Sequence record: SRR20825006_260
Reading direction: 5' to 3' (one strand)
Length of the DNA: 48,782 bases
Both the position numbers and the translations under genes were made by a program. Below the pieces are notes generated by a model that did no database searches, had not been told where the DNA came from, and saw nothing but the letters and a program-made list of their open reading frames with translations. Positions 25,513 through 45,549 of this stretch are shown piece after piece (within the stretch, counting starts at the first letter, position 1; each line of letters opens with the position of its first letter).

Positions 25513-26142
25513 TCACTCGGCCAGTGGGGGGATCCTGGCGATGACGAAGTAGCGCCCGGGGCCATACTCGATGTTGTCAGTGAACTGGCTCAGGAAGTCA
25601 TGATCGAGCGGCTGGACGTGGAAGGCCTCGAGCCACTTGCGCAGCGCGGGACCGAATGGTTTTGGCAACCCGGACAGGTCTGCGAAGTCGACGATCACGA
25701 CCTCGCCGCGCGGCGAGAGGCTTTGCCTGGCGCGCTCGATCGCCGCCTCGCGCTCCTGGACCATGGAGAGGCAGTAGGAGAAGAGGACGCGATCAGGGCG
25801 GCGCCCGAGCAAGCTCGTGTAATCGGTGTCCTCGGCAAAGCCCTGCTTCCAGTGAATGCCGGGGACGCGCTTCTTGGCGTATTCGAGCATCGCGTCGCTG
25901 GCCTCGACGCCACCGAGCAAGATGTTGGACTTGCTCGCCTGGATCTTGCGCAGGTTGCGCCCGGTGCCAGGGCCGATCTCGACGAGCGTGTGCCAGGACT
26001 GCTGCGAGAGCTGCTCGAGCACGCGGTCTCGCCCGAACAGATAGTACTTGCGCGTCACGTCATAGAACCAACGCGAGGCGCCGTAGTACTTGTTCAGAAA
26101 GTCGCGGTGCTCGGTTTGTTGTGCTGCTTGAGGCTCGGTCAT
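25513..26142 (-). CDS. btaB: SAM:diacylglycerylhomoserine N-methyltransferase (betaine lipid synthesis)
   Basis: YDVTRKYYLFGRD, EIGPGTGRNL, FSYCLSM, IVDF and WLEAFHV motifs; overlaps the btaA stop. Confidence 0.8.
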   Translation of the reverse strand: MTEPQAAQQTEHRDFLNKYYGASRWFYDVTRKYYLFGRDRVLEQLSQQSWHTLVEIGPGTGRNLRKIQASKSNILLGGVEASDAMLEYAKKRVPGIHWKQGFAEDTDYTSLLGRRPDRVLFSYCLSMVQEREAAIERARQSLSPRGEVVIVDFADLSGLPKPFGPALRKWLEAFHVQPLDHDFLSQFTDNIEYGPGRYFVIARIPPLAE

Positions 26143-27272
26143 GACGCGTGCGAGATCCTGTAGAAGTGAACGTGGCGATACTGGCGCGAGCGGTCGAGAT
26201 CAGTCGCGATCTTGGACTCGTTGTCCATGCGCTTGAAGTGGCCATGGAAGCCCAGGCGATCGACGAGGCAGTCATCCTCGACGGTGCGATACAACATCAC
26301 GGCGCCATCCTTGCTGGTGCGAAGGATCTCTTCGAGCAGTTGGCGCTGGAGCTCTGGCGGCAACCAGTCAGGCATGTCGCACAAGGTGTAGTGCGTCCAG
26401 GTCTTACGAGGCGCCTCGCCCATGACGCTGAACAGGTTGCGGTGGTGATAACGCACACGCGTCGGCGCATGGATCGAGCGCTCCCAGCGCGACTTGCGCA
26501 GGTAGGGAGGCACGGCGTCATCGCGGTCGTGATTGTAATGACCCGCGACGTTCAGCCAGGCAAACCAGTTGGTGTCGAGGTCGGTGACCACGATGCGGCG
26601 CAGGTGGTGCATGATGAAGTCGACCATATTCTGGGCGCCTTCGGCCTCGAGCATCCGCTCTTTTTGCTCGTAGTTCACGCCGAGCGAGATCAACTGGATC
26701 GGCGAGCTGGTGGCGGCCTTGATCAAGGGGCGCTCGAAGACAGGCCCGATGACCTCGTTGATGCTGGCGATGCGCTGTTCGTTGGTCTTGGCCGCGAGCG
26801 AGCGCAGGTAATCGGCGTCCAGGCCGACAATGTTGCGCAAGATCTTGAGGGACTCGGCTGTCAGGCCTTTCTCGTAGAAGTTCGAGGAGAAGCGCTCGTG
26901 GTGACGCTTCCAATAACGCTGCACCCAGTGCGGCATGTAGTGGGCGATCTGTTTGACGACCTCGTAGGGGTCCTGCACGGCGCCATGGCCGAGCAAATCG
27001 TAGAAGGTCTTGTAGGGGGTGAGGCGTTGCGCGGCGGTGATTTTCAGGGCAGCGAGCGCGAGGTGGTGTTGGTTGATATCGACCGCATCGAGGCTGCGCG
27101 CGCGGCGGCTGACCATGCCTGCGACGCCGCACCCTGCACCAGTGATACTCAACACGTTGGAGTCCTCGTCCACCCCGAGGAAGCGCTCGTCGACCTCCGA
27201 ATCCTCGAAGAGGATGTTGTAGACGAAGATCTTGCTAAAGGTGCTCTGGAAAAGAATATCCCGCAACCTCAT
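26139..27272 (-). CDS. btaA: SAM:diacylglycerol 3-amino-3-carboxypropyl transferase (DUF3419/BtaA)
   Basis: VYNILFEDSEVD, SITGAGC, AVDINQHHLAL..LK, NWFAW, PPYL and DMPDW motifs; paired with a BtaB-like gene. ATG 27272 follows AGGAG. Confidence 0.8.
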   Translation of the reverse strand: MRLRDILFQSTFSKIFVYNILFEDSEVDERFLGVDEDSNVLSITGAGCGVAGMVSRRARSLDAVDINQHHLALAALKITAAQRLTPYKTFYDLLGHGAVQDPYEVVKQIAHYMPHWVQRYWKRHHERFSSNFYEKGLTAESLKILRNIVGLDADYLRSLAAKTNEQRIASINEVIGPVFERPLIKAATSSPIQLISLGVNYEQKERMLEAEGAQNMVDFIMHHLRRIVVTDLDTNWFAWLNVAGHYNHDRDDAVPPYLRKSRWERSIHAPTRVRYHHRNLFSVMGEAPRKTWTHYTLCDMPDWLPPELQRQLLEEILRTSKDGAVMLYRTVEDDCLVDRLGFHGHFKRMDNESKIATDLDRSRQYRHVHFYRISHAS

Positions 27273-27455
27273 GACCGGGCTCCTGTGGCTGGTTATAGTT
27301 GAAGCATCGCTCCGAGCCAAATAGAGCGCCCCCATGAAGTCGAGGTTCGGCACACGAACCGCGAGAAACAACGTGGCGTACGGAAATACCGCGCACCCAC
27401 AACCTTCATGATGTAGCGCGCACAAACCCTCTTTCACCCTGTACCCGGGTGTCAA

Positions 27456-27484
27456 TTGAAATTTTCGTGACAAAATCACGACTT
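27456..27484 (-). promoter_or_regulatory. putative Pho box upstream of btaAB
   Basis: The minus strand reads AAGTCGT-GATT-TTGTCAC-GAAA-ATTTCAA: three CTGTCAT-like heptamers at an 11-bp period, about 185 bp upstream of btaA. Confidence 0.45.
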
Positions 27485-27609
27485 CAGGCAGAAGCCGTGC
27501 GCTCGACATGTGCCAGACAGGCGCGCGAAAAAAGTCGCTCGAGGAGGGTTTTCATGAGGCGAGAGCGCACCTGAGCAGGTGCGCTCTCGCCTCACTCGAA
27601 GGGGGATGC

Positions 27610-32752: not shown

Positions 32753-33139
32753 TCACTCGAAACCCGAGTCGGGGTGCCCGGTCTTCTCGAAGTCGCTCTC
32801 GAGGAGCATCGCCCCCTCCTGGATATCGACGAGCAACGTCAAGCCCTCGTAAGCCATCAGATCCGCCTCGAGGATGGGACGAGGAGGCAAAAACCTCACG
32901 AGCACCTCCTCGATGGTGACCATCTCAGGATGAAAAGGCTGGCCCGCGCGAATCGGTTGGTTGGCCTTGAGCACAGGCACCATCTCCATCACGCGCGTGC
33001 AATCACAGCAACGGTCATTTTGCACCACGTACACATACGCGCCGCCATAGATCGCGGCCCCCAGCACGACCAAAAGCAACGCGGATAGAATCATCGCAGC
33101 CCAGCGGTACTCGCCGCGAAACACCTTCTTGCTGATCAT
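32753..33139 (-). CDS. small membrane-anchored SAF-domain protein (CpaB N-terminus-like)
   Basis: One TM helix, then VLKANQPIRAGQPF...FLP...G..LLVDIQEGAMLLESDF, a SAF-like pattern. Confidence 0.6.
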   Translation of the reverse strand: MISKKVFRGEYRWAAMILSALLLVVLGAAIYGGAYVYVVQNDRCCDCTRVMEMVPVLKANQPIRAGQPFHPEMVTIEEVLVRFLPPRPILEADLMAYEGLTLLVDIQEGAMLLESDFEKTGHPDSGFE

Positions 33140-33189
33140 GCACGCCTCTTCTTTTCGTGTCGTGATGGTTGCCAGGATTTCGATGATAC

Positions 33190-33237
33190 AACAAAGGGCG
33201 TCCTTGTTGGAGTCTCCAAACGAGGACGCCCTTTGTT
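33190..33237 (-). terminator. intrinsic terminator-like hairpin after phaC1
   Basis: AACAAAGGGCGTCCT ... AGGACGCCCTTTGTT 15-bp stem with T-rich ends on both strands, about 50 bp past the phaC1 stop. Confidence 0.65.
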
Positions 33238-33288
33238 TTCATCACGATACGTGATCCAAAGCGCAAGCAAGTCACATCGACGCGTGGC

Positions 33289-34350
33289 TCATTCTCCGGC
33301 GGCGGCGTGAAGTTTTGTCGTGTTGGCGCCATCGCGCTCGGCGAACCAGGTCGAGATCGTCGGCCAGAGCCCCTGCGAAGCCTTGCTCGAGACCACCGCG
33401 CCGACGTGACCACCATTGAGACGCAGGCACTGCTTGTCCTCGGAGCTGATGCGATCGATCAGGATCTCGGCCGAGGGGAGCGGCACGATGTGATCGTGCA
33501 GGAAGCAGATCGCCAGCGTCGGGCAGGTGATGTTCTCGAGCTTGACGGGTTCTCCCGAGAGCGAGAACTGACCTTTAATCAGTAGGTTATCTCGATAAAG
33601 CTCGTTAATGTAGCGCCTGTAGCAAGTTCCGGGGAACGAGACATTATCATTGCCCCAGGTCTCGATCGCGAAGAACCCGTCGAGGAACTGGTCATCCCAG
33701 GCGCGGTCGATCATATATGTCGCCTTGGAGAGGTTCATCGTCGGGCGGAGCATATGAAACGCCGACTGCATCAGCGGCCAGGGCACATTGCCCGTGGCCT
33801 CGATGAGCGAGTCCAGATCAAAGGTCGAGACGCGCGTCCACGTGGTCAAGATGCCGCCATGATCGAAGTCGATCGGCGCCGCGAGCGCCAACAAGGAGGC
33901 CACATGCTCCGGGCGTCGCGCCGTATAGATCGAGGTCATCGTCCCGCCCATACAATACCCCAACACGTGGGTCTTGTTGTGCGGCGAGCGCTTGGCAACC
34001 TTGCGGACTGCTCGCCCGATGTAACCGTCACAGATCTCATCGAACGTCAGGTAGCGATCCTCGGGTCCAGGCGTCCCCCAATCGATGATGTAGACATCGT
34101 GCCCCTGGGCAACCATCCACTCCGCGAAGCTCTTCCCCTTCATCAGGTCGAGCACGTAGTGGCGGTTGATCAGCGAAGGGACGAGCAAGATCGGGGTCTC
34201 GAACGCCAGCCCCTCGGGACGAGGACGGTAGCGCAAGAGCTTCCACTTGTTCTCGGTCCAGATCACATCGGCGGGAGTTTGCCCCACGGGCGCCCGGCCT
34301 CTGGCCGGCGCCTTGATGAGGTTCTTGATCCTGTCGAATACCTTGCTCAT
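33289..34350 (-). CDS. phaC: class III-type polyhydroxyalkanoate synthase (PhaC1)
   Basis: GQTPADVIW, PILLVPSLINRHYVLDL, YIIDWG, lipase box GYCMGG, HDHIV (Asp) and GGHVG (His); 353 aa, class III size. Confidence 0.88.
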   Translation of the reverse strand: MSKVFDRIKNLIKAPARGRAPVGQTPADVIWTENKWKLLRYRPRPEGLAFETPILLVPSLINRHYVLDLMKGKSFAEWMVAQGHDVYIIDWGTPGPEDRYLTFDEICDGYIGRAVRKVAKRSPHNKTHVLGYCMGGTMTSIYTARRPEHVASLLALAAPIDFDHGGILTTWTRVSTFDLDSLIEATGNVPWPLMQSAFHMLRPTMNLSKATYMIDRAWDDQFLDGFFAIETWGNDNVSFPGTCYRRYINELYRDNLLIKGQFSLSGEPVKLENITCPTLAICFLHDHIVPLPSAEILIDRISSEDKQCLRLNGGHVGAVVSSKASQGLWPTISTWFAERDGANTTKLHAAAGE

Positions 34351-34502
34351 GACTTCTCACCCATCTCTCAGGGGCATGGCATCACGCGAGCGATGCCATC
34401 GGCTTCTCGTCCACTGATTCGGCCACAGTTGTTGCGGCGAGAGCGCGATACAAACATCGCTACTCGCCGATCAACGCAACCTTAAAAACAATACAATATC
34501 AA

Positions 34503-36245
34503 TCACTTGCTGTAGAGGGACTCGAACGAATCATTGAAGCGTTCGTAGACCTTCTTGCGCTTGACCTTGAGCGTTGGCGTCAAGAGCCCGTTCTCGACGG
34601 TCAGCGGCTCGTCGACGATGACGAACTTCTTGATCGTCTCGAAGCGCGCGAGCCCCTGGTTGGCGCGCTCGACGCGCTCGGTGACGAGCTTCTGGAGCGC
34701 CTCGGCGCGCGCATCATCTCCCTTGACGCCATGCTCCTCGAGGTAGGGCTCGATCGCCTCCTCGTGGAGCCACACCCCCGCGGTGATAAATGGCTTGCCG
34801 TCACCATAGGCGACCACGTGCGCGATATAGGGGTCATCGCGGAAGCGGATCTCGATGTTGGCAGGCGGGATATTCTTGCCTTGCGCGGTGACGAGGATCT
34901 CCTTCTTGCGGTCGATGATCTGGAGGAAGCCATCATCGGTCCAACGCCCGATGTCACCCGTTTTGAGCCATCCATCGGCGGTGAAGGTCTCTTCTGTGGC
35001 GCGCGCGTTCTTGTGATAGCCGTTAAAGATGCTCTCGCCACGCGCGAGGATCTCGCCATCTTCTGCGAGCTTGAGCTCGACCGACTGGAGCGGCTTGCCG
35101 ACCGAGTCGAAGCGAAAATCACTGGGGCGATTGAGCGTGAGCGTCGGGCTCGCTTCGGTCAGGCCATACCCCTCGATGATGAGCATATCGTGCGAGAAGA
35201 GGAACTCCTTGACCTCGCGCTTTAGCCCCGCGCCGCCGGAGAGGCAGAACTTGAGGTTGCCGCCCGTGATGGCGTCGAGCTTGGCGCGCTGTGCCTTCTG
35301 CGTGGACTCGTCCATGGCCGCCGTGGCCATCTTCTCGAACATGCGGGGCACGCTCATGAAGACCTCGGGGCGCACCTCGGGGAGCTGCGCCAGCACGTTC
35401 ACAGGATCGGTCCAGTAGGTCACGAACCCGAGCGTGTTTCCCAGGCAAACCTCGCCAAACCCGAAGATATGGCTCAGGGGCAACCAGAGCAGATCGACGT
35501 AGCCCTCTTCGAGCAGCGGCGCGTTGCACTGCATCCAGTCGCGGCCGTTGACGCCGACGTTGCGGTGCGTGAGCGGCACGCCCTTTGGCAACCCGGTGGT
35601 GCCAGAGGTGTAGAGCATCACCGCGTTGTGATCGATCGAGACGTTGTCCAGGAGCTGATAGATCTTGTCGGGGGACTCTTCTGCGAGCGCCCTGCCCTGT
35701 GATCGAACCTGGCTCCAGGCGACGAACTTCTCGGAGACCTTGGAGGCCGATGGCGCGGCCTTGCCTTCAGCGCGCAGCGCCTCGAGTGATTTCGCGACAT
35801 CGAGCGTGTCATTGAGCGCGATGATACGGAGCAACCCGCCCTCGACCTGCTCCCACTGCTCGAGCACGCGGCGAAGCAACTTCTCCGAGTCCACGAACAA
35901 CACGCGCGCGTCGCTGTGCTCGACCACATAGGCGATCTGCTCGGAGGTGCTCGAAGGATAAATCGGGACCATCACGCCGCCAGCGGCCTGGATGCCGAGC
36001 GCTGCCGACATCCACTCGACGCAATTGTAAGCGAGGATCGTGGCGCGATCGCCGAGCTTGAGCCCGATGCTGTTGAGGTAGAGGCCGACGGCCTCGATCT
36101 CGTTGGCGAAGGCGCCCCAGGTGATCGCGCGCCAGTCTCCCTGACCATCGGGAACCATGAAGCGCACGCGGGTGCGACGCTCGGGCAAGCTGTTAAAGAC
36201 CACGCGCGCGGCGGGGTTGAGATCCATGTATTTGGAGACGTCCAT
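34503..36245 (-). CDS. fadD: long-chain-fatty-acid-CoA ligase (AMP-binding)
   Basis: YTSGTTGLPKG, EGYGLTE, SVGKP, GWLKTGDIG, IIDRKKE and LTPTLKVKR. Confidence 0.88.
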   Translation of the reverse strand: MDVSKYMDLNPAARVVFNSLPERRTRVRFMVPDGQGDWRAITWGAFANEIEAVGLYLNSIGLKLGDRATILAYNCVEWMSAALGIQAAGGVMVPIYPSSTSEQIAYVVEHSDARVLFVDSEKLLRRVLEQWEQVEGGLLRIIALNDTLDVAKSLEALRAEGKAAPSASKVSEKFVAWSQVRSQGRALAEESPDKIYQLLDNVSIDHNAVMLYTSGTTGLPKGVPLTHRNVGVNGRDWMQCNAPLLEEGYVDLLWLPLSHIFGFGEVCLGNTLGFVTYWTDPVNVLAQLPEVRPEVFMSVPRMFEKMATAAMDESTQKAQRAKLDAITGGNLKFCLSGGAGLKREVKEFLFSHDMLIIEGYGLTEASPTLTLNRPSDFRFDSVGKPLQSVELKLAEDGEILARGESIFNGYHKNARATEETFTADGWLKTGDIGRWTDDGFLQIIDRKKEILVTAQGKNIPPANIEIRFRDDPYIAHVVAYGDGKPFITAGVWLHEEAIEPYLEEHGVKGDDARAEALQKLVTERVERANQGLARFETIKKFVIVDEPLTVENGLLTPTLKVKRKKVYERFNDSFESLYSK

Positions 36246-36345
36246 TGTTTACCGGTCCTCGCAGTTCGTGCTGTTCATCCTGGCGGCGAGAGGGCTGCTC
36301 GCCCCCTCGCTCCTCGCCGCATCAAAAGTCATGCGACGACAAGGG

Positions 36346-36648
36346 TCACTTCTCCTTTTCCTGGAGCTCCTCGAGGCGCTCCTCGAGGTCATAGATCTTG
36401 GACTGGAGCTGGTTGATGGCGTGGAGCATGCGCTCCTGATCGGTCTTTGTGGGGAGGCCCATGTTGCCCCACATCTGCGTCATCATCTGATTGGTCTTGG
36501 CGCGATTCTTGGTCATCGAGCCGAGCAACATCCCGCCTGGCTTGAGCACGAGCGGGCTCTTCATGACCTCCTCGAGGTACTTCGCCGTCTGGTTCTCCCA
36601 GTTAAAGAATGCCTTCTTCCAGAGGTCCCATGGGGTTTGTGCGTTCAT
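36346..36648 (-). CDS. short PhaE-like PHA synthase accessory subunit (100 aa)
   Basis: AAGGAG RBS and ATG 36648. The W..MGLPTKTDQERM...INQLQSKIYDLEERLE coiled coil resembles the C-terminus of PhaE / class IV PhaR; lies in the phaC1 operon. Confidence 0.6.
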   Translation of the reverse strand: MNAQTPWDLWKKAFFNWENQTAKYLEEVMKSPLVLKPGGMLLGSMTKNRAKTNQMMTQMWGNMGLPTKTDQERMLHAINQLQSKIYDLEERLEELQEKEK

Positions 36649-36745
36649 CGTATTCTCCTTTGACGTATCGCGTGCCGCACTCTTCGATGCGGGCTTTTGG
36701 ATGATCGTTTCCGCGAGGGAAGCGATCGGGTGAATGAGTTTCGTT

Positions 36746-37606
36746 TCAAGGTTCGATGCCAAGGCGCCGAAGCTCCACGGCGTTGGTGAAGTTTGGTTCG
36801 GTGACGCCGGTGGGCGCGGTGGCCCTGGCGACCTCGCCAAAACATTCGAACAAAAAGCCGACCTGTTGCTGCGTGACCGCCTGCCCCACGGCGGGCTCGA
36901 CCTTGACGGTGGTGCGCACCATCATCGCCTGCTCGAAGGTCAAATCAGGCAAGAATAGCTCGCCGGTGTCCTCGACCGAGACCTCGTAGGTGTCCTTCCC
37001 GGCATAAGGGATGCCGTAGAACATCGCGTTGCGCGTGGTCCCCACCGAGACCCAGCTCTTCCCCTTCTCCAGCGGGAAGAGGTAGAGCGCCACGGGCTCC
37101 TCGTAGACGATCAGGGTTTGCCCTTCGGCGGGCTCTTCTTCTGATGAGGCGAGCCCGAGCAGATAGAAGCCATCCTCGTCGCGGCGATAGACGTTCTCGA
37201 TCGTCCCGCCGAGATCGCTGGCGGTGACAAACTGCCCGCTCGGGAAGCTGCTCGCGTACCACTTGCCCTGGAGCGGGTCTGCTTCGAGGCGAGCGATCTG
37301 ATCGCTGGCGGCATCTCTCGAGAGATCCCAGCGGCGCTCGCCAGCGGTGTTGACCTGACCTGCGATATCCACCGCGGGCATCGTGCCGGGAGGATTCACC
37401 AGATAAGAGACGGAGACGCCGAGCGTTTCGGTCAACTCCGAGGCAGTGATTTTGCCATCGAGGTCTGGATAACAGGTGAACTCGACCTGCTCGCCAGTGC
37501 CCATGTAAAGGTCACGATCAGGCGCTGGCGTGAGGTTCTCCTCGCATCCTCCGATCATCGGGAGGAGAGAGAGCGCGAGCGCGCATGCAAGCCTCTTTGT
37601 ATGCAT
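36746..37606 (-). CDS. lipoprotein B of the PHA-linked envelope module
   Basis: Lipobox IGGC. Paralogous to 40288-41301 (CxPxxDGxIT, RxWDL, KW..FP, LLG, FPLE, ECFGxVA, FTxAxExRRL). Confidence 0.8.
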   Translation of the reverse strand: MHTKRLACALALSLLPMIGGCEENLTPAPDRDLYMGTGEQVEFTCYPDLDGKITASELTETLGVSVSYLVNPPGTMPAVDIAGQVNTAGERRWDLSRDAASDQIARLEADPLQGKWYASSFPSGQFVTASDLGGTIENVYRRDEDGFYLLGLASSEEEPAEGQTLIVYEEPVALYLFPLEKGKSWVSVGTTRNAMFYGIPYAGKDTYEVSVEDTGELFLPDLTFEQAMMVRTTVKVEPAVGQAVTQQQVGFLFECFGEVARATAPTGVTEPNFTNAVELRRLGIEP

Positions 37607-37625
37607 CTGTTCTCTCCTTGTGGCC

Positions 37626-39221
37626 CTAGAATCCGTAGGTCAGCTGAAGTCGCAGTGATTGCGCAGGTTTGGCGGAGATGCCCTGCGCCACGTTGTCCAA
37701 CCCTGCAAGTGGGAACAGGACCGCGTAGTCGAGGCCAAGGCCAAACTTATCCCGGCTCAGGTACGTGATCGAAGGATCGAGTTCGACGCCCAGCGGCTCC
37801 GCGCCCCCTGGCGTCGAAGAGCTGTAAATCGCGCGCGATGCGACCGCGGCGAAGTCGAACCTGAGCACCCCGGCGGTCGCCTTCCACGCATCCCAGCTGA
37901 TGTGTGGGCGCAAGTAGAAGGCGCCCGTCACCGTCCCGATGATCTCTCGGAAGAGGATCTGATCGATGCGATAGTCGGGGTGAAAGCGGAAGTTGTTGAC
38001 CGAGTTATCGTAGGGCGGGTTTGCCTGCGAACCCTCGAGATCGCCGGGTCGCCCGGGCGTTTGCTCGAGCGATGGCGAGGCGCCAAACCCATAGGCAGAA
38101 TCACCGCTGGCGACGCCGAGATCGAGGCCGCCCTTAAAGCGCCCCTGGTGTGGACCGAAGTCCGTCTCGAGCGCAGCACCAAACTGCGTCGAGAGCGACG
38201 GAACATCGAAGCGCGTCCCTGGCACTACAGAGGTCTCACCGATCCTCGCGCGGAGCACAGCGACCTCGCCCTCGACGCGAAAGTTCGGCCCGACAAGGCG
38301 AAGCCAGACATCGTAGGCTTGCGCGCTGAAGTTGCGTTCGATGACCTGCGCGTCGTCGATCTCGACTGGCTCGGTGGTCGGCACGTAGGTGGCAGGGATA
38401 TCGTTTCGCTGCCAACGATGCGAGAACACGGCGCCGTAATCGAAGGTGACCTTGCCCGCGTTGTTGCGGCGGTTTAGCGCGAGCGCGTCGCGTTGGCGCA
38501 GGAACGCGAAGTTGACCGTATGCAGATTATCACTGCGCCCGAGGTCGATCTCTCGCGTCTCGACCTTTCGCGTCGCCGTGGGACCGACCCAACCGATATC
38601 GTAGGCGACCGCGACGAAGTGATTCCAACGCGAGGTCACGAACGCGATGCGATCTGCGGCGTCGCCCGAGTCACACTGGAGGCAATCTCCACCGTTGGAG
38701 AGCATCCCCAAACCCCAGGTGTTCCCCATACGTCCTGCGGCGATCACACCGAACGGCGTGAGCGCCTCGCCCCAGACGCGCTTGAGCCGAAAGACGCGCT
38801 CTCTGGGAGGATCTTGCGATGTGGTCGTCGAGGGAATCCCGCGCGGCGTCGAGCCGAGCGTGAGGTTATCGACCACGTCGATGCGCGAGTTCACGCGGAC
38901 CTGGCCGAACGGCGCGTAGAGCGAGAGATCGGTGCGAAAGCGCGCGTCCGAGTGATTCAAACGTTGCGCGGTAGGATCACCGAGCGGCACGGGATAGAGC
39001 GGCAACCCCGATGGCGTCAGGCCATGATCGAGGTCGAGGTTGTAGAGCGACTCTCCGCGCAACCTCAAGAAGCCGCTGATATCCACAGCCGACTCATTGC
39101 CGATGTTATCGAGCCCCTGACCGATTTCGGAGAACTCGGTGGCGCTAGCCGAATGAGACGTGCACATCAGCGCGATGAGCGTGGTGATGGCGGCGAGGTT
39201 CTGGAGCAAACGATGGCTCAC
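37626..39221 (-). CDS. outer-membrane beta-barrel protein (TIGR04551-like)
   Basis: Signal peptide, SGFLRLRGE, KRVWGEALTPFG..AGRM..WGLGML.N.G, FRFHPDYRIDQILFREIIGTV, amphipathic strands and terminal TYGF. GTGA overlap with the upstream stop. Confidence 0.8.
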   Translation of the reverse strand: MSHRLLQNLAAITTLIALMCTSHSASATEFSEIGQGLDNIGNESAVDISGFLRLRGESLYNLDLDHGLTPSGLPLYPVPLGDPTAQRLNHSDARFRTDLSLYAPFGQVRVNSRIDVVDNLTLGSTPRGIPSTTTSQDPPRERVFRLKRVWGEALTPFGVIAAGRMGNTWGLGMLSNGGDCLQCDSGDAADRIAFVTSRWNHFVAVAYDIGWVGPTATRKVETREIDLGRSDNLHTVNFAFLRQRDALALNRRNNAGKVTFDYGAVFSHRWQRNDIPATYVPTTEPVEIDDAQVIERNFSAQAYDVWLRLVGPNFRVEGEVAVLRARIGETSVVPGTRFDVPSLSTQFGAALETDFGPHQGRFKGGLDLGVASGDSAYGFGASPSLEQTPGRPGDLEGSQANPPYDNSVNNFRFHPDYRIDQILFREIIGTVTGAFYLRPHISWDAWKATAGVLRFDFAAVASRAIYSSSTPGGAEPLGVELDPSITYLSRDKFGLGLDYAVLFPLAGLDNVAQGISAKPAQSLRLQLTYGF

Positions 39222-40291
39222 GGTGACACCTCGTCGTCTTCGCTCGTCACACCGGGGGTGTCGTAGCCACGAGGCTCGACGGAGACATCCTCGTCAGGTT
39301 GCGCTGGCGCGACCGGCTCGACCACAGGCTTCACGTTGTCCACAGGAGTGGTGGTCGCGGGCGCCTCGAGATCCTTTGCCAGGAACGCGGCGAGCGCGTC
39401 GGTCGAGGGGTGATACGCCTCGATCATGGGGAAATGCCCACATTGACCGAAGACCTCGAGCTCGGCGTTTGGCAACTGACGCACGAGCTTCTCACCGACC
39501 CACAGCGGCGTGACCTGATCCTCGCGTCCCCATAACAGGAGCGTGGGCTGGTCGATCTCGGAGTAGCGATCCTGGACGAGTTCGTAGCGCTGTCCTCGCA
39601 CCGCGGCGAGCGCTGCGGCGCGGGTGCCAGGGCGATCGAGCTGCGCCTCGACGTCCTCGACGAGCGCCTCGGTGATGATCGTCTTGTCGTAGAACGCGCC
39701 AGAGATCTTGATCCCTGGCTGCTCCTTGTAAAAGAGCGCGAAGAGCACCTCTCCGAGCGCGGCGGTGCGAGACCAGAGGAAGAAGGTCGGAAGCTGCTCG
39801 GCGTAGACCCAGGCGTCATAGAGGACCAGGCGACGGAAGCGGTCCGGCGCCTGTAGGATCGTCGCCAACGCCACCGAAGATCCCCACGAGTGCGCCACGA
39901 TGGCGACAGGCTCCTTGACCTCAAGGTGTTCGAGCAACCCGAGGATGAGCTCGCCCTGTGCTTCAGGGGAGTAATCTCCGCGAGGGCGATCGGTCCAGCC
40001 AAACCCCTTGAGGTCGAGCGCGATGACGCGATGTCCCTGCGCGGTGAGCACGGGGATGATCCCACCCCAGGTGTTAAGCGAGGCGGCGAACCCGTGGACG
40101 AGCACCACGGGCGCCTTCCCCTCCTTGTTCACATCGACGTAGCGCACGCGCGCGTCCTCGATGGGCGCGAAGGTGGCGTCCTCAGGCTCTCCGGGCATGG
40201 CGCCCTGGTGATGCGCGAGGCAACCCGAGAGCACCATGGCCAGAAGTGCGCACGCCATGCGCATCACATATGGGTGGGTGGCGAGGTTCAC
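39218..40291 (-). CDS. lipid-anchored alpha/beta hydrolase (esterase/lipase/depolymerase-like)
   Basis: Lipobox LSGC, oxyanion VHGF, nucleophile AHSWG, WGREDQVTP (Asp) and CGHFP (His). 4-bp overlaps at both ends. Confidence 0.85.
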   Translation of the reverse strand: MNLATHPYVMRMACALLAMVLSGCLAHHQGAMPGEPEDATFAPIEDARVRYVDVNKEGKAPVVLVHGFAASLNTWGGIIPVLTAQGHRVIALDLKGFGWTDRPRGDYSPEAQGELILGLLEHLEVKEPVAIVAHSWGSSVALATILQAPDRFRRLVLYDAWVYAEQLPTFFLWSRTAALGEVLFALFYKEQPGIKISGAFYDKTIITEALVEDVEAQLDRPGTRAAALAAVRGQRYELVQDRYSEIDQPTLLLWGREDQVTPLWVGEKLVRQLPNAELEVFGQCGHFPMIEAYHPSTDALAAFLAKDLEAPATTTPVDNVKPVVEPVAPAQPDEDVSVEPRGYDTPGVTSEDDEVSP

Positions 40292-41301
40292 TGCGCGAGC
40301 CTCCTGACCTCGGAGGCGGTGGTGAACTCGACCTCGTCCTCGTCATCCTCGCTCACGATGGTGGCGACGGTGCCAAAGCACTCGGAGACAAAGGCGTAGG
40401 TGCGGATCTTGGTGGTGTAGAAGCCGATGGTGCGATCGAGCTCGACGCGAACGCGCAGGACCTCGAGGTCGCCGTAAGGCGTGCGGAGCGTGCCCCTGGC
40501 GTCGACCTGTGAGGAGTACTCCTCGTCGTAGATGCTGTAGACCCCCTGCGCCAAGCCGGAGACCTCGGAGTCCGTGGTCCAGGAGGCGTCCACCTCGAGC
40601 GGGAAGGAGAGGATCTCGACGGGAGGGTCGTAGGTCAGGTTGGTCTCGGAGAAGCCATCCTCTGGCGACACGACGCCGAGCAAAAGCAGCGCGTCATCGG
40701 TGATCTGGAAGACGCCGAGCAAATTCGACGAATCACTGAGCGGCGTGACGTAAGACGCGTCGGGGAAGTCGGTGGAGAACCACTTGTTCTTGGGGTCACG
40801 CGCCTCGACGATCACGAGGTGATCGTTGGCGAGTTCGACGTTCAGGTCCCAGATGCGGTTGCCATTCTCGCCCATTTCGCCAGCGGTGTTGACCTCGGTG
40901 TCATTGGCGACCTTGTAGGTGGCGCGAAGACCAGACCGAAGCGGCACCTCCTGGCGCGTGATCACCCCGTCCTTGTTGGGGCGACAGACCCTGGGGTCGG
41001 CGTTGGGCGTGCCCATATCGCCTTGCGAGGTGTTGTTGCCGTTCATGTCGATGACATCGCCGCCCATATCGGATGGGGGCGTCGTGATGTTCATGTCACC
41101 GCTGGAGGTGTTGTTCGCGCTGGTGTTGTTCTCACCGCCGAGATCGTCGCCAGCCATGTCCTCGGACATGTCGGGGACGAAAGAGGTGAACCCCTCGTCA
41201 TCGCGCGGATCGTCTGTGGGGACGCACGCGGTGGCGAACGCGGATAGTGTGGCAATGCAACATACGCAGAGAGCGCGCATGAATGGGTGCTTCATCGTCA
41301 T
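40288..41301 (-). CDS. lipoprotein A of the PHA-linked envelope module
   Basis: Lipobox ATAC, DM/NNT low-complexity linker, and a domain paralogous to 36746-37606. Confidence 0.8.
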   Translation of the reverse strand: MTMKHPFMRALCVCCIATLSAFATACVPTDDPRDDEGFTSFVPDMSEDMAGDDLGGENNTSANNTSSGDMNITTPPSDMGGDVIDMNGNNTSQGDMGTPNADPRVCRPNKDGVITRQEVPLRSGLRATYKVANDTEVNTAGEMGENGNRIWDLNVELANDHLVIVEARDPKNKWFSTDFPDASYVTPLSDSSNLLGVFQITDDALLLLGVVSPEDGFSETNLTYDPPVEILSFPLEVDASWTTDSEVSGLAQGVYSIYDEEYSSQVDARGTLRTPYGDLEVLRVRVELDRTIGFYTTKIRTYAFVSECFGTVATIVSEDDEDEVEFTTASEVRRLAQ

Positions 41302-41338
41302 ATCGAACCTCGCAGGAGACGCTTCGTTGCGTCAATGC

Positions 41339-41539
41339 TGCAATGCAAAATATGCAGCGTGGAGAATGGTTAACAACGGGTGGTATGAATGTCAACTGTT
41401 TTTGCAGCTGCAAAAAACAGTTCTTTGGCCGCCTTACGTGCTGTGGCGGTGAAAAAGTCGGGCCTTTCAATGGGAGACCCCATAAAGTATGCTGCCGCGA
41501 TGCAATGAGCGCAGCGCGCGACGGCTGCATCGCAACGCA
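41339..41539. promoter_or_regulatory. cluster of putative PhaR operator boxes in the divergent promoter
   Basis: TGCAATGCA 41339, palindromic TGCAGCTGCA 41403, CGCGATGCA 41496, TGCATCGCA 41526 and CGCAACGCA 41531. Confidence 0.6.
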
Positions 41540-41568
41540 ACAAAAACAAGGATTTCCGGGCTGGCGCC

Positions 41569-42273
41569 ATGATCACGATCAAAAAATACAGCAATCGTCG
41601 TCTCTATGACACATCTCAAAGTCAGTATGTGACGCTCGAGGAGTTGGCTGACCGCATCCGCGATGGCGCGGACGTGCGCGTGGTGGATGCCAAGAGCAAC
41701 GAGGACCTGACCCAAGGCGTGCTCGCGCAGATCATCATCGAGAGCCGCGGGGCGGGGAAGTTGTTGCCGACGAAGATGCTCATGCAGCTTATTCGCATGG
41801 AGGATGACGTGTTGGCGGAGTTCTTCGGGCAGTACATGTCCTGGGCGCTCTCGATGTATTTGCGTATGAAGCAGACGCGCCAGCGCATCTCGCCATTCGG
41901 TCAGCAGTCGCCGTTCGGCGCGCCGAATCCGTTCTCGCAGTGGCTCGGCAGCCTGTACAACTGGCCTGGGTTCCAGGGACAGCAGCCCGACTTCCCGATC
42001 GATCCCTCGAACGCGCCGCCCTACCCCACGCCAGGCAATATGCCGGACTTCGAGCCAGAATACGAACCGGAGCCCACGCCAGAACCAGCGCCCGCGCCAG
42101 AGCCCAAGTCTGCGGCAAAGGCCCCCAAAAAACAGGCGCCCGTGGCGCGAGCAAGCGCCGAAGAGCCCGAGCCGGAGGAGAAGTCCGACGAGGTCTCACA
42201 GATGCGCCAGGAGCTCGACGAGCTCAAGGAGCTGCTCAAGCAAGTGGCGCTCAATCAGGCGAAACAATCCTGA
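41569..42273 (+). CDS. phaR: PHA synthesis regulator PhaR
   Basis: IKKYSNRRLYDTSQSQYVTLEEL...VVDAKSNEDLT..VLAQII, the canonical PhaR DNA-binding domain, then a Pro-rich linker and coiled-coil tail. Confidence 0.92.
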   Translation: MITIKKYSNRRLYDTSQSQYVTLEELADRIRDGADVRVVDAKSNEDLTQGVLAQIIIESRGAGKLLPTKMLMQLIRMEDDVLAEFFGQYMSWALSMYLRMKQTRQRISPFGQQSPFGAPNPFSQWLGSLYNWPGFQGQQPDFPIDPSNAPPYPTPGNMPDFEPEYEPEPTPEPAPAPEPKSAAKAPKKQAPVARASAEEPEPEEKSDEVSQMRQELDELKELLKQVALNQAKQS

Positions 42274-42301
42274 TTCCAACCGATTAACACCCCTCCTTTT
42301 G

Positions 42302-42523
42302 TGCAGCGCACACTCCCAACCTTCACGCTCGAGAGGATTTTTATTGCGACGCAACAAAAATCCTCTTGACGCAGCGCAACATCATCCCTATACCTTTTGA
42401 GCGTGGCCGGGGAGCCAGGGCGTTTCCAGTAAGCACCTGCCTGCCATAGCAACGGTGAAACGACGACGACTCGATGCGTTCTGGCTTCCCGCGCCGCACA
42501 TAAACAACGAATTTTGCAACGCA
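42302..42523 (+). promoter_or_regulatory. sigma70-like promoter with PhaR-type boxes upstream of the phasin-like gene
   Basis: TTGACG (42366)-N17-TATACC (42389). Boxes TGCAGCGCA 42302, TGCGACGCA 42345 (centre of a 35-bp near-palindrome, 42332-42366), CGCAGCGCA 42370 and TGCAACGCA 42515. Confidence 0.65.
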
Positions 42524-42598
42524 ATAGTAGCGCCGCAACATCGCGGCGCGTGCCGGCCCCACCGCGGGCTTTGCCGGCCAACGAGAAAGAGGGATGTC

Positions 42599-42874
42599 AT
42601 GAGCGAGAAAGCCACCAACTTCTTTGGCAAGTACACCGAGCAAGTCAACGCCATGTTCAAGGAGCAAGCTGGTGTCGTCGAGTCGATGACGAGCGAGTGG
42701 AACAAGGTTCGCGGCCAGGGCCTCGAGCAGGCGCAGGTCGTCATGGAGGACTACGCCAACCTCATGAAGCTCTCCTTCGAGTACCAGTCCACCCTCTTCC
42801 AGGACATGCAGAAGATGTCGGCGGATGCCATGCGCAACACCGCCGAGATGATGAACGTCACAAAGAACGCCTGA
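42599..42874 (+). CDS. putative phasin (PHA granule-associated protein), 91 aa
   Basis: GAGGGA RBS and ATG 42599. All-helical amphipathic Met/Gln/Glu-rich sequence between phaR and phaC2, under PhaR-type boxes. Confidence 0.6.
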   Translation: MSEKATNFFGKYTEQVNAMFKEQAGVVESMTSEWNKVRGQGLEQAQVVMEDYANLMKLSFEYQSTLFQDMQKMSADAMRNTAEMMNVTKNA

Positions 42875-42935
42875 GCGCCTTTGCGGACGTGACTTGTGGG
42901 CGCGAGCCTTAGGCAAATCCAGCAAGCTCGTGCTC

Positions 42936-43002
42936 CGAGGGGAGCCTCGACCGCGGTGTCCCGCCCTCGCAGGGGACGCTGCGGGGAGGCTCCCCTCGTT
43001 TT
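42936..43002 (+). terminator. intrinsic terminator after the phasin-like gene
   Basis: CGAGGGGAGCCTC ... GAGGCTCCCCTCG with further internal pairing, followed by TTTT. Confidence 0.65.
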
Positions 43003-43136
43003 ACGTTCACGTCTCGCTGCGAGGTCCTCGCGCGATCGAATCGATAAGACCATCCAGCCAGGCAAGAGGCGACGAGGCGCCGCGAATCGTTTCGCGCTCG
43101 TTGCCCAAAAGCCCAATCCAGACCAGGAGTTGTCTC

Positions 43137-44360
43137 ATGGAGACCGCCAAAGCAGCAGTTCCGTTCACGCCGCCACCGACCATCGCGGCGACCCCGAAGG
43201 ACACGATCTTTCGTGATGGCACCGCGTCGCTCTACCGCTTCCGCCCCACACCCGGCGGCGACGCGGACGCGACCAACATCCCCTTCTTGCTCGTCCCTTC
43301 GATGATCAACAAGTGGTACGTGCTCGATCTGCGGCCCGGGTTCTCGATGGCCGAGTCGATGGTCGAGCATGGCATCGACACCTACCTGCTCGATTGGGGG
43401 ACGCCAAACGACGAGGATCGCTACCTGAACTGGGAGTTGATCATCGCCAAGCTGGCGCGCATGGTCCGCCGCGTCAAACGCCACACGGGCGCCGACAAGG
43501 TCGCGCTGCTCGGCTACTGCATGGGCGGCACCCTGAGCAGCATCTACACCTCGCTGCACCAGGATGATGTCGCGGCGTTCATCAACCTGACGGCGCCGAT
43601 CGACTTCAGCAAGGGTGGCCTGCTGCGCACGCTCGTGGACGAGAAGTGGTTCGATCCTTACGCGATGACTGCGGCTGGCAACCTGCCCGCGCCTCAGATG
43701 GAGTCGGGCTTCACCTCGTTGCGCCCGACGAGCAAGTTCTCCAAGTGGATCATGTTCGCCGACAAGCGCAGCAAGCCTGGGTTTGTCGAGTCCTTCAACG
43801 CGCTCGAGCAGTGGGCAGGGGACAACATCCCCTTCCCCGCCGAGGCGTACCAGACCTACATCCACGAGCTCTACCAGCAGAACCTGCTCTATAAAGGGGA
43901 GCACTTCGTGGGTGGCAAGCGCGCCGACCTGGCAAACATCACCTGCCCTGTGCTCACGGTGGTGGCAAGCCGCGATACGATCTGTCCCGCGGAGGCAGCC
44001 ACGGCCATGAACGACCTGGTCAGCTCCGAGGATCAGAGCGTGCTCACCATCGGCGGCGGTCACGTCGGCGCGGTGGTCGGTTCGCGCGCGCCAAAGCAAC
44101 TCTATCCTGCCGTCGCCGAGTGGCTCATCGAGCGCTTTGGCAAGGACGCCGCGCCCGCGCTGCGCGAGGTGGACGCCGAGGAAGACGCCGGCGAGGAGCT
44201 CGAGCCAATGGAAGCGCGCACGCGCGAGCTCGAGGATATGACCGTGGCGCAACTTCGCCGCGTTCTGCGCCAGCATGACATCGTGACCTCGGGCAACAAG
44301 GCCGAGCTCGTCGCGCGCATCGTCGCGCACGAGTTCGGATTGAGCGGCGAGGACGAGTGA
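43137..44360 (+). CDS. phaC: class III-type PHA synthase (PhaC2) with C-terminal SAP-like domain
   Basis: AGGAG RBS and ATG 43137. LLVPSMINKWYVLDL, YLLDWG, GYCMGG, RDTI and GGHVG; tail LEDMTVAQLRRVLRQHDIVTSGNKAELVARI. Confidence 0.88.
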   Translation: METAKAAVPFTPPPTIAATPKDTIFRDGTASLYRFRPTPGGDADATNIPFLLVPSMINKWYVLDLRPGFSMAESMVEHGIDTYLLDWGTPNDEDRYLNWELIIAKLARMVRRVKRHTGADKVALLGYCMGGTLSSIYTSLHQDDVAAFINLTAPIDFSKGGLLRTLVDEKWFDPYAMTAAGNLPAPQMESGFTSLRPTSKFSKWIMFADKRSKPGFVESFNALEQWAGDNIPFPAEAYQTYIHELYQQNLLYKGEHFVGGKRADLANITCPVLTVVASRDTICPAEAATAMNDLVSSEDQSVLTIGGGHVGAVVGSRAPKQLYPAVAEWLIERFGKDAAPALREVDAEEDAGEELEPMEARTRELEDMTVAQLRRVLRQHDIVTSGNKAELVARIVAHEFGLSGEDE

Positions 44361-44522
44361 GGCCTGCTATCGCCTCGCCGATCGATCCTGCCGATCTCGG
44401 CATAGGGAAATGGCCGGGTAACCTGTAAGATTTCGCTCCAGAGAATGAAAAGTCCCGGCGTCTGGCGCCGGATTTCTGGAGGGTGCGTGTGTGTACCCTC
44501 GCTTGCAAGAAAGGAAGAGAAG

Positions 44523-45287
44523 ATGAACCTGAACGAGATGCACATCATCGTCACGGGCGCAGCCAGCGGGCTGGGCCGTTGCTTCACCGAAGAGCTCGTG
44601 CGCGGCGGCGCCAAGGTCATGGCCTGTGACCTCAACGAAGAGGGCCTCGCGGCGCTCAAGTCGGAGCTCTCCGAGCAAGGCACGATCGAGACCTTCGTGG
44701 CGGATGTCTCCAACGAAGAGCAAGTCGTGGCGCTTGTCCAGGCGACCGCGGACGCGTTCGATGGCAAGGTCAACGGCCTGGTGAACAACGCCGGGATCTT
44801 CCGCGACTCGCTGCTCGTCTCCAAGAGCCGCAAGACCGGTGAGATCCGCAAGATGAGCCTCGATGACTGGCAAAAAGTCATCGACGTCGACCTCACGGGT
44901 CCTTTCCTTTGCACCCGCGAAGTCGCCGCGCACATGGTCGAGAACGGCAACAAGGGCGTCATCGTCTCCATCTCGTCGGTCTCTCGCGCGGGCAACCGCG
45001 GTCAGTCGAACTACTCGGCTGCAAAAGCTGGCCTGGTGGCAGACACCAAGCTGTGGGCCGAGGAGCTCGCGCGTTACGGCGTGCGCACGGGCGCAGTTGC
45101 TCCTGGCTTCACGCAGACGCCTATCCTGGACGCGATGCGCGACGAGATGCTCGAGAAGATCGTCTCCGGCGTGCCTCTTCGCCGCACGGGAACGCCCTTC
45201 GAGATCTGGCAAGCGGTCAAGTTCATCATCGAGTGTGACTACTTCACCGGCCGCTGCGTCGACGTGGACGGTGGCCTCACGGTCTGA
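44523..45287 (+). CDS. fabG: 3-oxoacyl reductase (SDR; FabG/PhaB-like)
   Basis: TGAASGLG, NNAGI, SISS, YSAAK and VAPGF motifs. ATG 44523. Confidence 0.85.
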   Translation: MNLNEMHIIVTGAASGLGRCFTEELVRGGAKVMACDLNEEGLAALKSELSEQGTIETFVADVSNEEQVVALVQATADAFDGKVNGLVNNAGIFRDSLLVSKSRKTGEIRKMSLDDWQKVIDVDLTGPFLCTREVAAHMVENGNKGVIVSISSVSRAGNRGQSNYSAAKAGLVADTKLWAEELARYGVRTGAVAPGFTQTPILDAMRDEMLEKIVSGVPLRRTGTPFEIWQAVKFIIECDYFTGRCVDVDGGLTV

Positions 45288-45306
45288 TGAATAGGCGCCT
45301 CGCGCC

Positions 45307-45381
45307 CAGCTATTTATTTTTGAATAGCTGAACAAATGTGGCGATGTCGCTCCCTCGAGGAGCAACATCGCCACATTTGTT
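45307..45381 (+). terminator. tandem hairpins after the reductase gene
   Basis: CAGCTATT...AATAGCTG (45307-45330), then AACAAATGTGGCGATGTCGCTCC...GGAGCAACATCGCCACATTTGTT (45331-45381) followed by T's. Confidence 0.6.
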
Positions 45382-45549
45382 TTCAGGGTGACCGAATGAT
45401 TCCGCAGTCCTTTTCGAGCGTTTGCAGAAGCATTTTGGGGCATCGGCCAAAGACTGTTATCCTCGGACGTACTTTCAGATATGCGCTCGAGCGACCGGAT
45501 TGGAGCTGGTTGCGCCGCGCCACGTTTACCTTCGTCATGGAGAGGGGAC

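Follow-up and report, generated by a model that had tools for sequence, protein, structure and literature searches.

A conserved four-gene envelope module beside polyester-synthase genes points to a possible, so far undescribed envelope branch of polyester metabolism in Myxococcota

What is a set of predicted cell-envelope proteins doing in a polyester storage locus? The metabolism of polyhydroxyalkanoates (PHAs) is treated as a cytoplasmic cycle, and a 48,782-nucleotide stretch of DNA from sequence record SRR20825006_260 (hereafter the window) carries, next to genes for PHA synthases (PhaC), a run of four genes for two paralogous lipoproteins, a lipobox-bearing hydrolase and an outer-membrane barrel. 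An original prediction, made from the letters of the window, had read these genes as an envelope module in which the hydrolase releases acids or oligomers, the barrel conducts them, and the lipoproteins bind or shuttle hydrophobic ligands. We find that the four genes are packed together and co-inherited with polyester-synthase genes across Myxococcota, and our analysis suggests that they form an undescribed cell-envelope branch of polyester metabolism in many myxobacterial genomes, i.e., that the module points to an envelope step of PHA metabolism across the phylum.

Gene order, linkage to PhaC and PhaR-type operators

The four genes lie on the minus strand, starting with lipoB (40288-41301; 337 amino acids), which encodes a probable lipoprotein with a signal peptide, Cys26, an acidic linker of ~74 residues rich in D, G, N, T and S, and a domain of ~240 residues shared with lipoA. 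It is followed by the gene of a lipobox-bearing alpha/beta serine hydrolase (39218-40291; 357 amino acids; LSGC lipobox, AHSWG elbow, PF00561) and by that of a TIGR04551 outer-membrane barrel (37626-39221; 531 amino acids), whose signal peptide ends in ASA and whose C-terminus reads TYGF. The last gene, lipoA (36746-37606; 286 amino acids), encodes a lipoprotein with an IGGC lipobox and the shared all-beta domain. As originally described, the sequence GTGA at both the lipoB-hydrolase and the hydrolase-barrel junctions lets a TGA stop codon overlap a GTG start codon, and the barrel and lipoA genes are separated by a 19-bp gap with AAGGAG ahead of the lipoA ATG.

Homologous loci were collected by scanning one genome per species, which gave 275 confirmed stretches, and the best 80 of these 275 were analyzed; all 80 are titled as metagenome-assembled genomes (MAGs), either Myxococcota or 'delta/proteobacterium' bins. 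With gene starts set by our own heuristic, in which overlap was not used as a criterion, a 4-bp overlap is found at the lipoB-hydrolase junction in 39 of 66 loci and at the hydrolase-barrel junction in 54 of 71, and the barrel-lipoA gap is at most 30 bp in 65 of 74. Because overlaps and short gaps recur across loci, the tight packing of the module is not a matter of chance. Sixty-three of the 80 loci extend far enough upstream for the gene order to be judged, and all 63 have the order lipoB-hydrolase-barrel-lipoA, 61 of them intact and two with a fragmented barrel gene. In the latter, L042 and L078 (long-read MAG contigs), the barrel gene is spread over several frames, indicating either assembly frameshifts or pseudogenes.

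A PhaC-like gene lies near the module in 73 of the 80 loci, so that the expected co-occurrence with phaC held in most of them. Two arrangements are seen. Of the 67 loci in which the distance could be judged, 55 have a PhaC-like gene downstream of lipoA and no more than 3.6 kb away. In about nine loci of a second arrangement (type II), another acyl-CoA ligase gene, a PhaC-like gene and a DUF3141/PHB_depo_C-like gene are all located upstream of the module. Thus, synthase and ligase genes accompany the module in both arrangements, and the linkage survives rearrangement. The fetched DNA of seven loci lacks a PhaC-like gene. In five of them a contig end truncates the locus; L016 and L019 alone are free of such a gene over 6.8 kb or more of downstream sequence, and phaR is still present in L019. 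The operon that we propose, conserved and probably PhaR-controlled, comprises lipoB, the hydrolase gene, the barrel gene, lipoA, a phaE-like gene, an acyl-CoA ligase gene and phaC1.

The spacer between lipoB and the divergent phaR gene was compared in 47 loci, the window included, and carries the palindrome TGC-N3-GCA in 46 of them, with 76 sites in total, whereas composition shuffles averaged 3.5 sites and never exceeded 12. The density of the palindrome is 7.0 per kb in the spacers compared to 0.56 per kb over whole loci. The strict form TGCRNYGCA accounts for 67 of the 76 sites, and the extended consensus is approximately TGTTGC-N3-GCAACA. A PhaR palindrome reported for Sinorhizobium meliloti and tested by electrophoretic mobility shift assay reads W2N2-YGCRNYGCR-N2W2 (bioRxiv 10.1101/2025.02.17.638283); since the TGCRNYGCA sites match this motif, we consider them predicted PhaR-type operators, and as such they lend further weight to the link between the module and polyester genes.

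In the window, one such palindrome, TGCAATGCA (41339-41347), which fits YGCRNYGCR, precedes the start codon of lipoB by 37 nt, and another, TGCATCGCA (41526-41534), precedes that of phaR by 34 nt; many loci share a site ~21-25 nt from the position at which phaR is estimated to start. Three more, at 42302, 42345 and 42515 (42302-42523), precede a small phasin candidate. Of the 12 TGC-N3-GCA matches in the window, five fall within 41339-42523. A total of 12 for the window is unremarkable, as 3 of 100 shuffles reach it, and it is the clustering around phaR that represents the signal. Among the type II loci, 4 of 9 carry the extended motif upstream of operon genes. Judged from these sequences, PhaR would control the whole unit from lipoB to phaC1. 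A simple promoter and terminator scan of 33000-45500 was uninformative: it gave 0 sigma-70-like sites, and none of the terminators it proposed within the operon was convincing.

The phaR-lipoB spacer of the window, 267 bp long, also contains a nested inverted repeat (41394-41422), in which a perfect 18-nt palindrome (41399-41416) lies inside 10-nt arms. Its core is TGC-N4-GCA, not N3, and its absence from the 46 other loci rules it out as a conserved operator; it is possibly a site for another regulator.

The hydrolase, the barrel and a new lipoprotein domain

Lipoboxes, counted with our own regular expression, are present in 75 of 80 lipoA orthologs, in 58 of the 63 lipoB orthologs whose N-terminus is present and in 61 of 70 hydrolase orthologs, and the misses mostly have odd residues at position -3 or truncated ends. 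Position +2 is Leu in 51 of the hydrolase orthologs, and none of the lipoA, lipoB or hydrolase orthologs has Lys at this position. Among Myxococcus xanthus inner-membrane lipoproteins, +2 Lys is reported for 8 of 12 (PMC3222651). The retained lipoboxes, the lack of +2 Lys, and the signal peptide and TYGF end of the barrel all argue for a location of the module proteins in the outer membrane or periplasm, which we regard as likely. Gene packing and co-inheritance are the evidence for a putative outer-membrane complex of barrel, lipoproteins and hydrolase.

That lipoA and lipoB share a domain of ~240 residues with conserved cysteines (CxPxxDG and ECFG), as had been noticed in the window, agrees with both BLASTP (74 of 250 residues identical, 30%, E 2e-30) and a 56-row alignment of the family with lipoB included. 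Invariant positions in this alignment, in lipoA numbering, are the lipobox Cys C21, C45, P47 and D50 of CxPxxDG, and E254, C255 and G257 of ECFG. The lipobox of the window lipoB, ATAC, is atypical, and its Cys aligns with the invariant lipobox Cys. Neither lipoA nor lipoB matched a Pfam or NCBIfam model, and a Pfam scan of all 56 members at E 1 or better found no family, with LolA/LolB-like and DUF1329 families absent. The 464 relatives of lipoA in a 90%-clustered protein set are all unnamed or 'hypothetical', and the named sources are Myxococcota. Searching 1.84 billion representatives (50% clustering) with the domain profile gave 803 matches at E 1e-3 or better, of which 355 at 1e-30 or better.

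An AlphaFold (AF2) model of lipoA (pLDDT 90.2) is almost wholly antiparallel beta. Foldseek found nothing in the PDB that reached E 1e-3; its closest hits for the model are YmcC-like lipoproteins, followed by weak lipocalin and fatty-acid-binding-protein-type barrels, and LolA/LolB is absent among the matches listed. A search of the lipoA sequence against the PDB gave nothing useful. The Atlas returned clusters of the family itself, one of them automatically named 'outer membrane lipoprotein-sorting protein family', and a DUF3108-like lead at 0.81, which is sub-threshold. The YmcC-like proteins (2in5, 3fzx, 4fvs) are likewise small all-beta lipoproteins, but the resemblance (E 3.4e-3 to 7e-2, TM 0.26-0.47, identity 7-14%) is too weak to place lipoA in the same fold family. 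The lipoprotein domain is thus new, without a Pfam family or a confident structural relative.

When 30 domains of each type, taken from 29 of 57 eligible loci plus the window, are placed in one tree, A and B form separate clades of 30 rows each with a support of 100/100. This indicates an old duplication, of which both copies have been retained since before the lineages diverged. Tandem copies of the domain are found in P0241 (789 amino acids, three copies), P0250 (892 amino acids, three copies) and P0294 (725 amino acids, two copies), suggesting that it is a reusable module. No fusion of the domain with a hydrolase or barrel was seen among nine long relatives, which are tandem domain copies or upstream extensions of the open reading frame, plus P0388, where a C-terminal fragment of a barrel is read through into the lipoprotein frame.

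Several local motifs mark the two lipoproteins. In lipoA (residues 21-57), a conserved C-G-[ED]-N-x-T motif directly follows the lipid Cys, with N24 and T26 at least 90% conserved, and the invariant stretch C45-x-P-[ND]-L-D-G-x-I-x-x-x-E57 resembles, in our reading, positions 3-12 of an EF-hand calcium loop; EF-hand_5 is matched weakly by 1 of the 56 family members (E 0.14). Just after the lipobox, 53 of 58 lipoB orthologs have a Cys-rich unit, C-x2-4-[DE]-C-x-S-G-x-C-x3-9-C. In the lipoB of L001, L044, L079 and the window this unit is replaced by the acidic D/G/N/T/S-rich linker; of the other misses, L042 is frameshifted and L049 has a variant outside the search pattern.

The hydrolase matches Pfam Abhydrolase_1 (PF00561) at E 2.3e-33 with 116.3 bits (cut-off 25.8). 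An alignment of 61 orthologs has C24 of the lipobox, H66-G67, H134-S135-x-G137 of the AHSWG elbow, D258 and H286 as invariant residues, so that elbow and lipobox, both part of the original prediction, are fixed in the family. Behind its lipobox the protein is, by sequence, a hydrolase with a complete Ser135-Asp258-His286 triad and an oxyanion HG motif, and a conserved short linker, C-L-x-[FH]-H-x-G-x-M-P-G-E-P, comes after the lipid Cys. The best PDB matches by profile are CumD (2.4e-39), PlaF (9.8e-32), BphD (1.6e-31) and the polyhydroxybutyrate (PHB) depolymerase 8ynv (9.9e-31), and the lipase 4opm is matched as well. With CumD and BphD (meta-cleavage-product or C-C hydrolases) and PlaF, the module hydrolase shares the capped alpha/beta fold, the Ser-Asp-His triad and the HG oxyanion motif; in contrast, these enzymes are cytoplasmic or helix-anchored, and none is a lipoprotein in an envelope operon. 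No NCBIfam equivalog cut-off is reached, the 1655 relatives have generic names only, and the sequence does not reveal a substrate. The window protein has a C-terminal tail of ~50 residues rich in P, V, E and D (39218-39380), which is missing from most orthologs (~295 amino acids long).

The barrel was expected to be TIGR04551-like and indeed scores 318.1 bits against this model (cut-off 300), over profile positions 3-518 of 519. The window barrel has no Pfam match, Alginate_exp (PF13372) included, and a Pfam scan of 71 family members at E 1 or better assigned them to no family. Against the PDB, a profile search gave nothing at E 10 or better and a sequence search nothing useful. An AF2 model built from 71 orthologs (pLDDT 83.5, pTM 0.81) has 18 long strands; the count is taken from the model, and a count from alternating hydrophobicity was too noisy. 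AlgE entries occupy the 15 highest Foldseek rows (E 5e-15 to 2e-13, TM 0.48-0.63), followed by the 18-stranded MOMP, OccK/OpdK and chitoporin, and also by general porins. Independently of Foldseek, the Atlas gives 'alginate export family' clusters at 0.98. The barrel is accordingly modeled as AlgE-like and 18-stranded. A FadL-like barrel is ruled out by 18 strands instead of 14, the lack of an N-terminal hatch and the absence of FadL among the matches listed. The barrel predicted as a conduit therefore stands as an outer-membrane barrel, now with a modeled AlgE-like fold; since this fold is that of an exporter of polymer but is similar to carboxylate-specific porins as well, transport could run in either direction. 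TIGR04551, for which a literature search by that name gave no match, thereby gains a fold and a biological context.

Conservation in the barrel is highest along residues ~372-433, the long segment that links strands 13 and 14. A nearly invariant loop, N-G-G-D-C-x-x-C-D-S-G-D, lies at residues 176-190 between strands 5 and 6; it is probably a pore loop, in which the cysteines C180 and C183 may pair as a disulfide or bind a metal. On the model, the strand 13-14 connection and this loop would shape the pore.

Intake, export or envelope upkeep

How could such a module serve polyester metabolism? We tentatively propose, while considering it somewhat likelier to be wrong than right, that it is a PhaR-controlled envelope leg for the intake and hydrolysis of ester-linked (hydroxy)acids, which are then stored by the ligase and PhaC1. 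Soluble ester-linked (hydroxy)acids from outside the cell would diffuse through the barrel, with oligomers from exogenous PHA as the most economical substrate and fatty esters as an alternative. The hydrolase, held at the periplasmic face by its short conserved linker, would cleave them there, and the two lipoproteins could act as scaffold or substrate holders at the periplasmic mouth of the barrel. A role as barrel plug, as for LptE in LptD, we rule out by inference, because the 18-stranded lumen would be too narrow for a domain of 240 residues. The freed acids would cross the inner membrane and be trapped by the ligase as CoA thioesters, PhaC1 and the PhaE-like protein would polymerize these, and the presence of polymer would free the operon from PhaR. 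That the acyl-CoA ligase of the operon consumes free acids fits intake.

Outer-membrane intake coupled to an acyl-CoA ligase has a precedent. FadL and FadD combine an outer-membrane channel with a ligase that traps the acid, so that a dedicated inner-membrane transporter is not needed. The logic of channel plus ligase is the same as that proposed for the module; in contrast, the module barrel has 18 strands and is not FadL-like, and the ligase is FadD11-like, below cut-offs. The DUF1302/DUF1329 pair of Pseudomonas putida (PP_0765/PP_0766), which is encoded close to fatty-acid genes and is reported to be required when fatty esters are the growth substrate (bioRxiv 10.1101/2020.07.04.188060), also consists of an outer-membrane barrel and a beta-rich envelope partner, and the automatic name of the lipoA cluster points in the same direction. 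Unlike this pair, the module matches neither DUF1302 nor DUF1329 in Pfam, has two paralogous lipoproteins and a hydrolase of its own, and resides in a PHA locus.

Several observations weigh against intake and storage of polyester building blocks. The hydrolase misses the PHA-depolymerase cut-offs, with 59.2 versus 300 bits for NF050089 (intracellular, short-chain-length) and 42.2 versus 250.6 bits for TIGR02240 (medium-chain-length PhaZ), and is at least as near to C-C hydrolases and PlaF as to PHA depolymerases. The best fold match of lipoA (E 3.4e-3, TM 0.34-0.47) offers no ligand clue. The ligase is of the long-chain type, a poor fit to 3-hydroxybutyrate, and PhaC1 and PhaR score below their NCBIfam cut-offs. 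As the nearest fold of the barrel, AlgE, is an exporter of an anionic polymer, the structure does not imply import. No inner-membrane transporter is found in the module of the window; a sodium:solute symporter, considered as a regular partner, was ruled out, since it lies directly upstream of lipoB in only 2 of the 80 loci, L029 (4967-6454) and L050 (4077-5987), both type II. In L029 the symporter frame runs into lipoB with no stop between. Finally, all 80 loci are MAGs, and none comes from a cultured carrier.

The original interpretation is therefore retained in part: its components, the conservation of the unit and the link to polyester hold, while the similarity searches single out no kinship of the hydrolase with PHA depolymerases and offer little in favor of lipoproteins that bind or shuttle ligands.

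A narrower form of the intake proposal, which we hold to be doubtful, is that predatory or scavenging Myxococcota salvage oligo-hydroxyalkanoates from the granules of other cells and turn polymer into polymer, by means of an AlgE-like channel, a tethered hydrolase, a new lipoprotein fold and PhaR control. In favor of intake in general, Myxococcota have been described as frequent predicted hosts of extracellular PHA depolymerases (bioRxiv 10.1101/2020.05.08.085522), and PHA genes are reported for most activated-sludge Myxococcota bins (PMC11821767). If true, salvage would help to make sense of PHA hydrolases whose periplasmic location is puzzling, among them PhaZ1 of Rhodospirillum rubrum. This enzyme, likewise an exported hydrolase of a PHA gene set with a debated role (PMC12983893), differs from the module hydrolase, which is predicted to be lipid-anchored and is always found with a barrel and two lipoproteins; the two are likened without a specific sequence relation.

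The barrel itself raises the opposite possibility. AlgE of Pseudomonas aeruginosa is encoded together with lipoprotein partners (AlgK) and a periplasmic polymer-cleaving enzyme, and a barrel with a lipoprotein and a periplasmic hydrolase is a general layout of polymer secretion. By analogy, the AlgE-like barrel and AlgK-like lipoproteins could release oligo-hydroxyalkanoates or a membrane-associated short polyester, which the hydrolase would trim or release in the periplasm, as do the glycoside hydrolases or lyases of synthase-dependent exopolymer systems. The uniform AlgE hits in Foldseek and the Atlas family name speak for export, as does a speculation by which membrane-associated PHB is the target of PhaZ1 in the periplasm of R. 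rubrum (PMC12983893). Nevertheless, we consider export improbable. Genes for a membrane-embedded synthase, a copolymerase or an exporter of the inner membrane are absent from the module and its flanks, both PhaC1 and PhaC2 are synthases of the ordinary soluble type, and a ligase that consumes free acids fits intake. AlgE is the best structural match as an 18-stranded monomeric outer-membrane barrel, but the window barrel is only 11-12% identical to it, and just 1 of 71 family members matches Alginate_exp, at E 0.038. Moreover, the partners of the module are not tetratricopeptide repeat proteins, and the context is polyester rather than polysaccharide synthesis: no alginate genes were seen in the window, and no alginate family was found among the 36 window proteins scanned.

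Equally improbable, in our estimate, is that the module has no specific role in polyester metabolism and represents a porin of the general type together with either a lipid esterase or a lysophospholipase, used for outer-membrane lipid upkeep or nutrient entry and merely co-regulated during nutrient imbalance. The profile match of the hydrolase to PlaF, a membrane-bound phospholipase A1 (6i8w), and to the lipase 4opm would suit such a function, and so would the two loci, L016 and L019, in which the module has no adjacent PhaC-like gene. PhaR of S. meliloti is also reported to control many non-PHB genes, including transporters (bioRxiv 10.1101/2025.02.17.638283). However, the same-strand, gap-poor run with phaE-like, ligase and phaC1 genes recurs in the 55 of 67 loci mentioned above, and the link to PhaC-like and ligase genes is kept in the second arrangement. 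A housekeeping module that is merely co-regulated would not be expected to stay linked through rearrangement.

Least probable of all is a function in mobilizing the cell's own polymer, with the hydrolase as a periplasm-side depolymerase or oligomer hydrolase like PhaZ1 of R. rubrum and the barrel and lipoproteins handling its products: the module does lie between two PhaC genes beside phaR and PhaR-type operators, in a position that recalls phaZ in Pseudomonas pha clusters, but granules reside in the cytoplasm without an encoded route into the periplasm, the hydrolase has no specific similarity to depolymerase families, and type II loci already hold a cytoplasmic PHB_depo_C/DUF3141-like protein beside the module. 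For PhaZ1 itself, a periplasmic location, a debated role and increased expression during polymer degradation are reported (PMC12983893).

Taken singly, the components of the module fall into broad classes that are familiar (a barrel of the AlgE type, an alpha/beta hydrolase, lipoproteins), and it is their combination and the setting in a PHA operon that appear undescribed. Among the matches listed for Myxococcus, myxobacteria or Myxococcota together with PHA, none describes the module, as judged by title and start of abstract. The proposed intake leg would bear on the handling of storage polymers and bioplastics by abundant Myxococcota of wastewater and sediment.

Polyester genes and other features of the window

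Downstream of lipoA, and on the same strand, the window encodes a small PhaE-like protein (36346-36648; 100 amino acids if an internal ATG is used) that matches the C-terminal part of PHA_synth_III_E at E 4.5e-4, below the cut-off; such a gene follows lipoA in most loci of the first arrangement (type I). Next come the long-chain-type acyl-CoA ligase (34503-36245, minus strand; AMP-binding 1.3e-65), whose best NCBIfam models, FadD11-like and long-chain fatty-acid-CoA ligase, both stay below their cut-offs, and PhaC1 (33289-34350, minus strand), a class III-like PHA synthase with a GYCMGG box and 295.4 bits against TIGR01836 (cut-off 365.3). On the plus strand, phaR (41569-42273), divergent from lipoB, matches PHB_acc_N at 7.4e-27 and TIGR01848 with 103.1 bits (cut-off 109.45). 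It is followed by the small phasin candidate (~42599-42874, plus strand); this protein has no Pfam family, so that the phasin label rests on gene position and is not backed by Pfam.

PhaC2 (42894-44360, plus strand, as the open reading frame is listed, with the true start probably further in) scores 271.7 bits against TIGR01836 and is 45% identical to PhaC1. A C-terminal SAP domain (PF02037, 2.6e-9) is present in PhaC2 and not in PhaC1; as a DNA-binding module it might tie polyester granules to the nucleoid. A short-chain dehydrogenase of the ketoacyl reductase type lies further downstream (44445-45287, plus strand; NF006072, 315.4 bits, cut-off 298).

Rfam and tRNA scans of the window gave no matches, and no further paralogs of the lipoprotein, hydrolase or barrel families were found within it. 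A DnaA gene with all three Pfam domains is located at 3928-5568, and the window may thus lie near a chromosomal replication origin. At 25513-27509, a DUF3419 protein (2.3e-58) adjoins an S-adenosylmethionine (SAM) methyltransferase, a pair that presumably resembles the betaine-lipid pair BtaA/BtaB. Finally, an 879-residue protein (16558-19197) combines TonB_C, CarboxypepD_reg and Plug domains, an unusual arrangement in which a TonB C-terminal domain stands at the front of a receptor-like protein.

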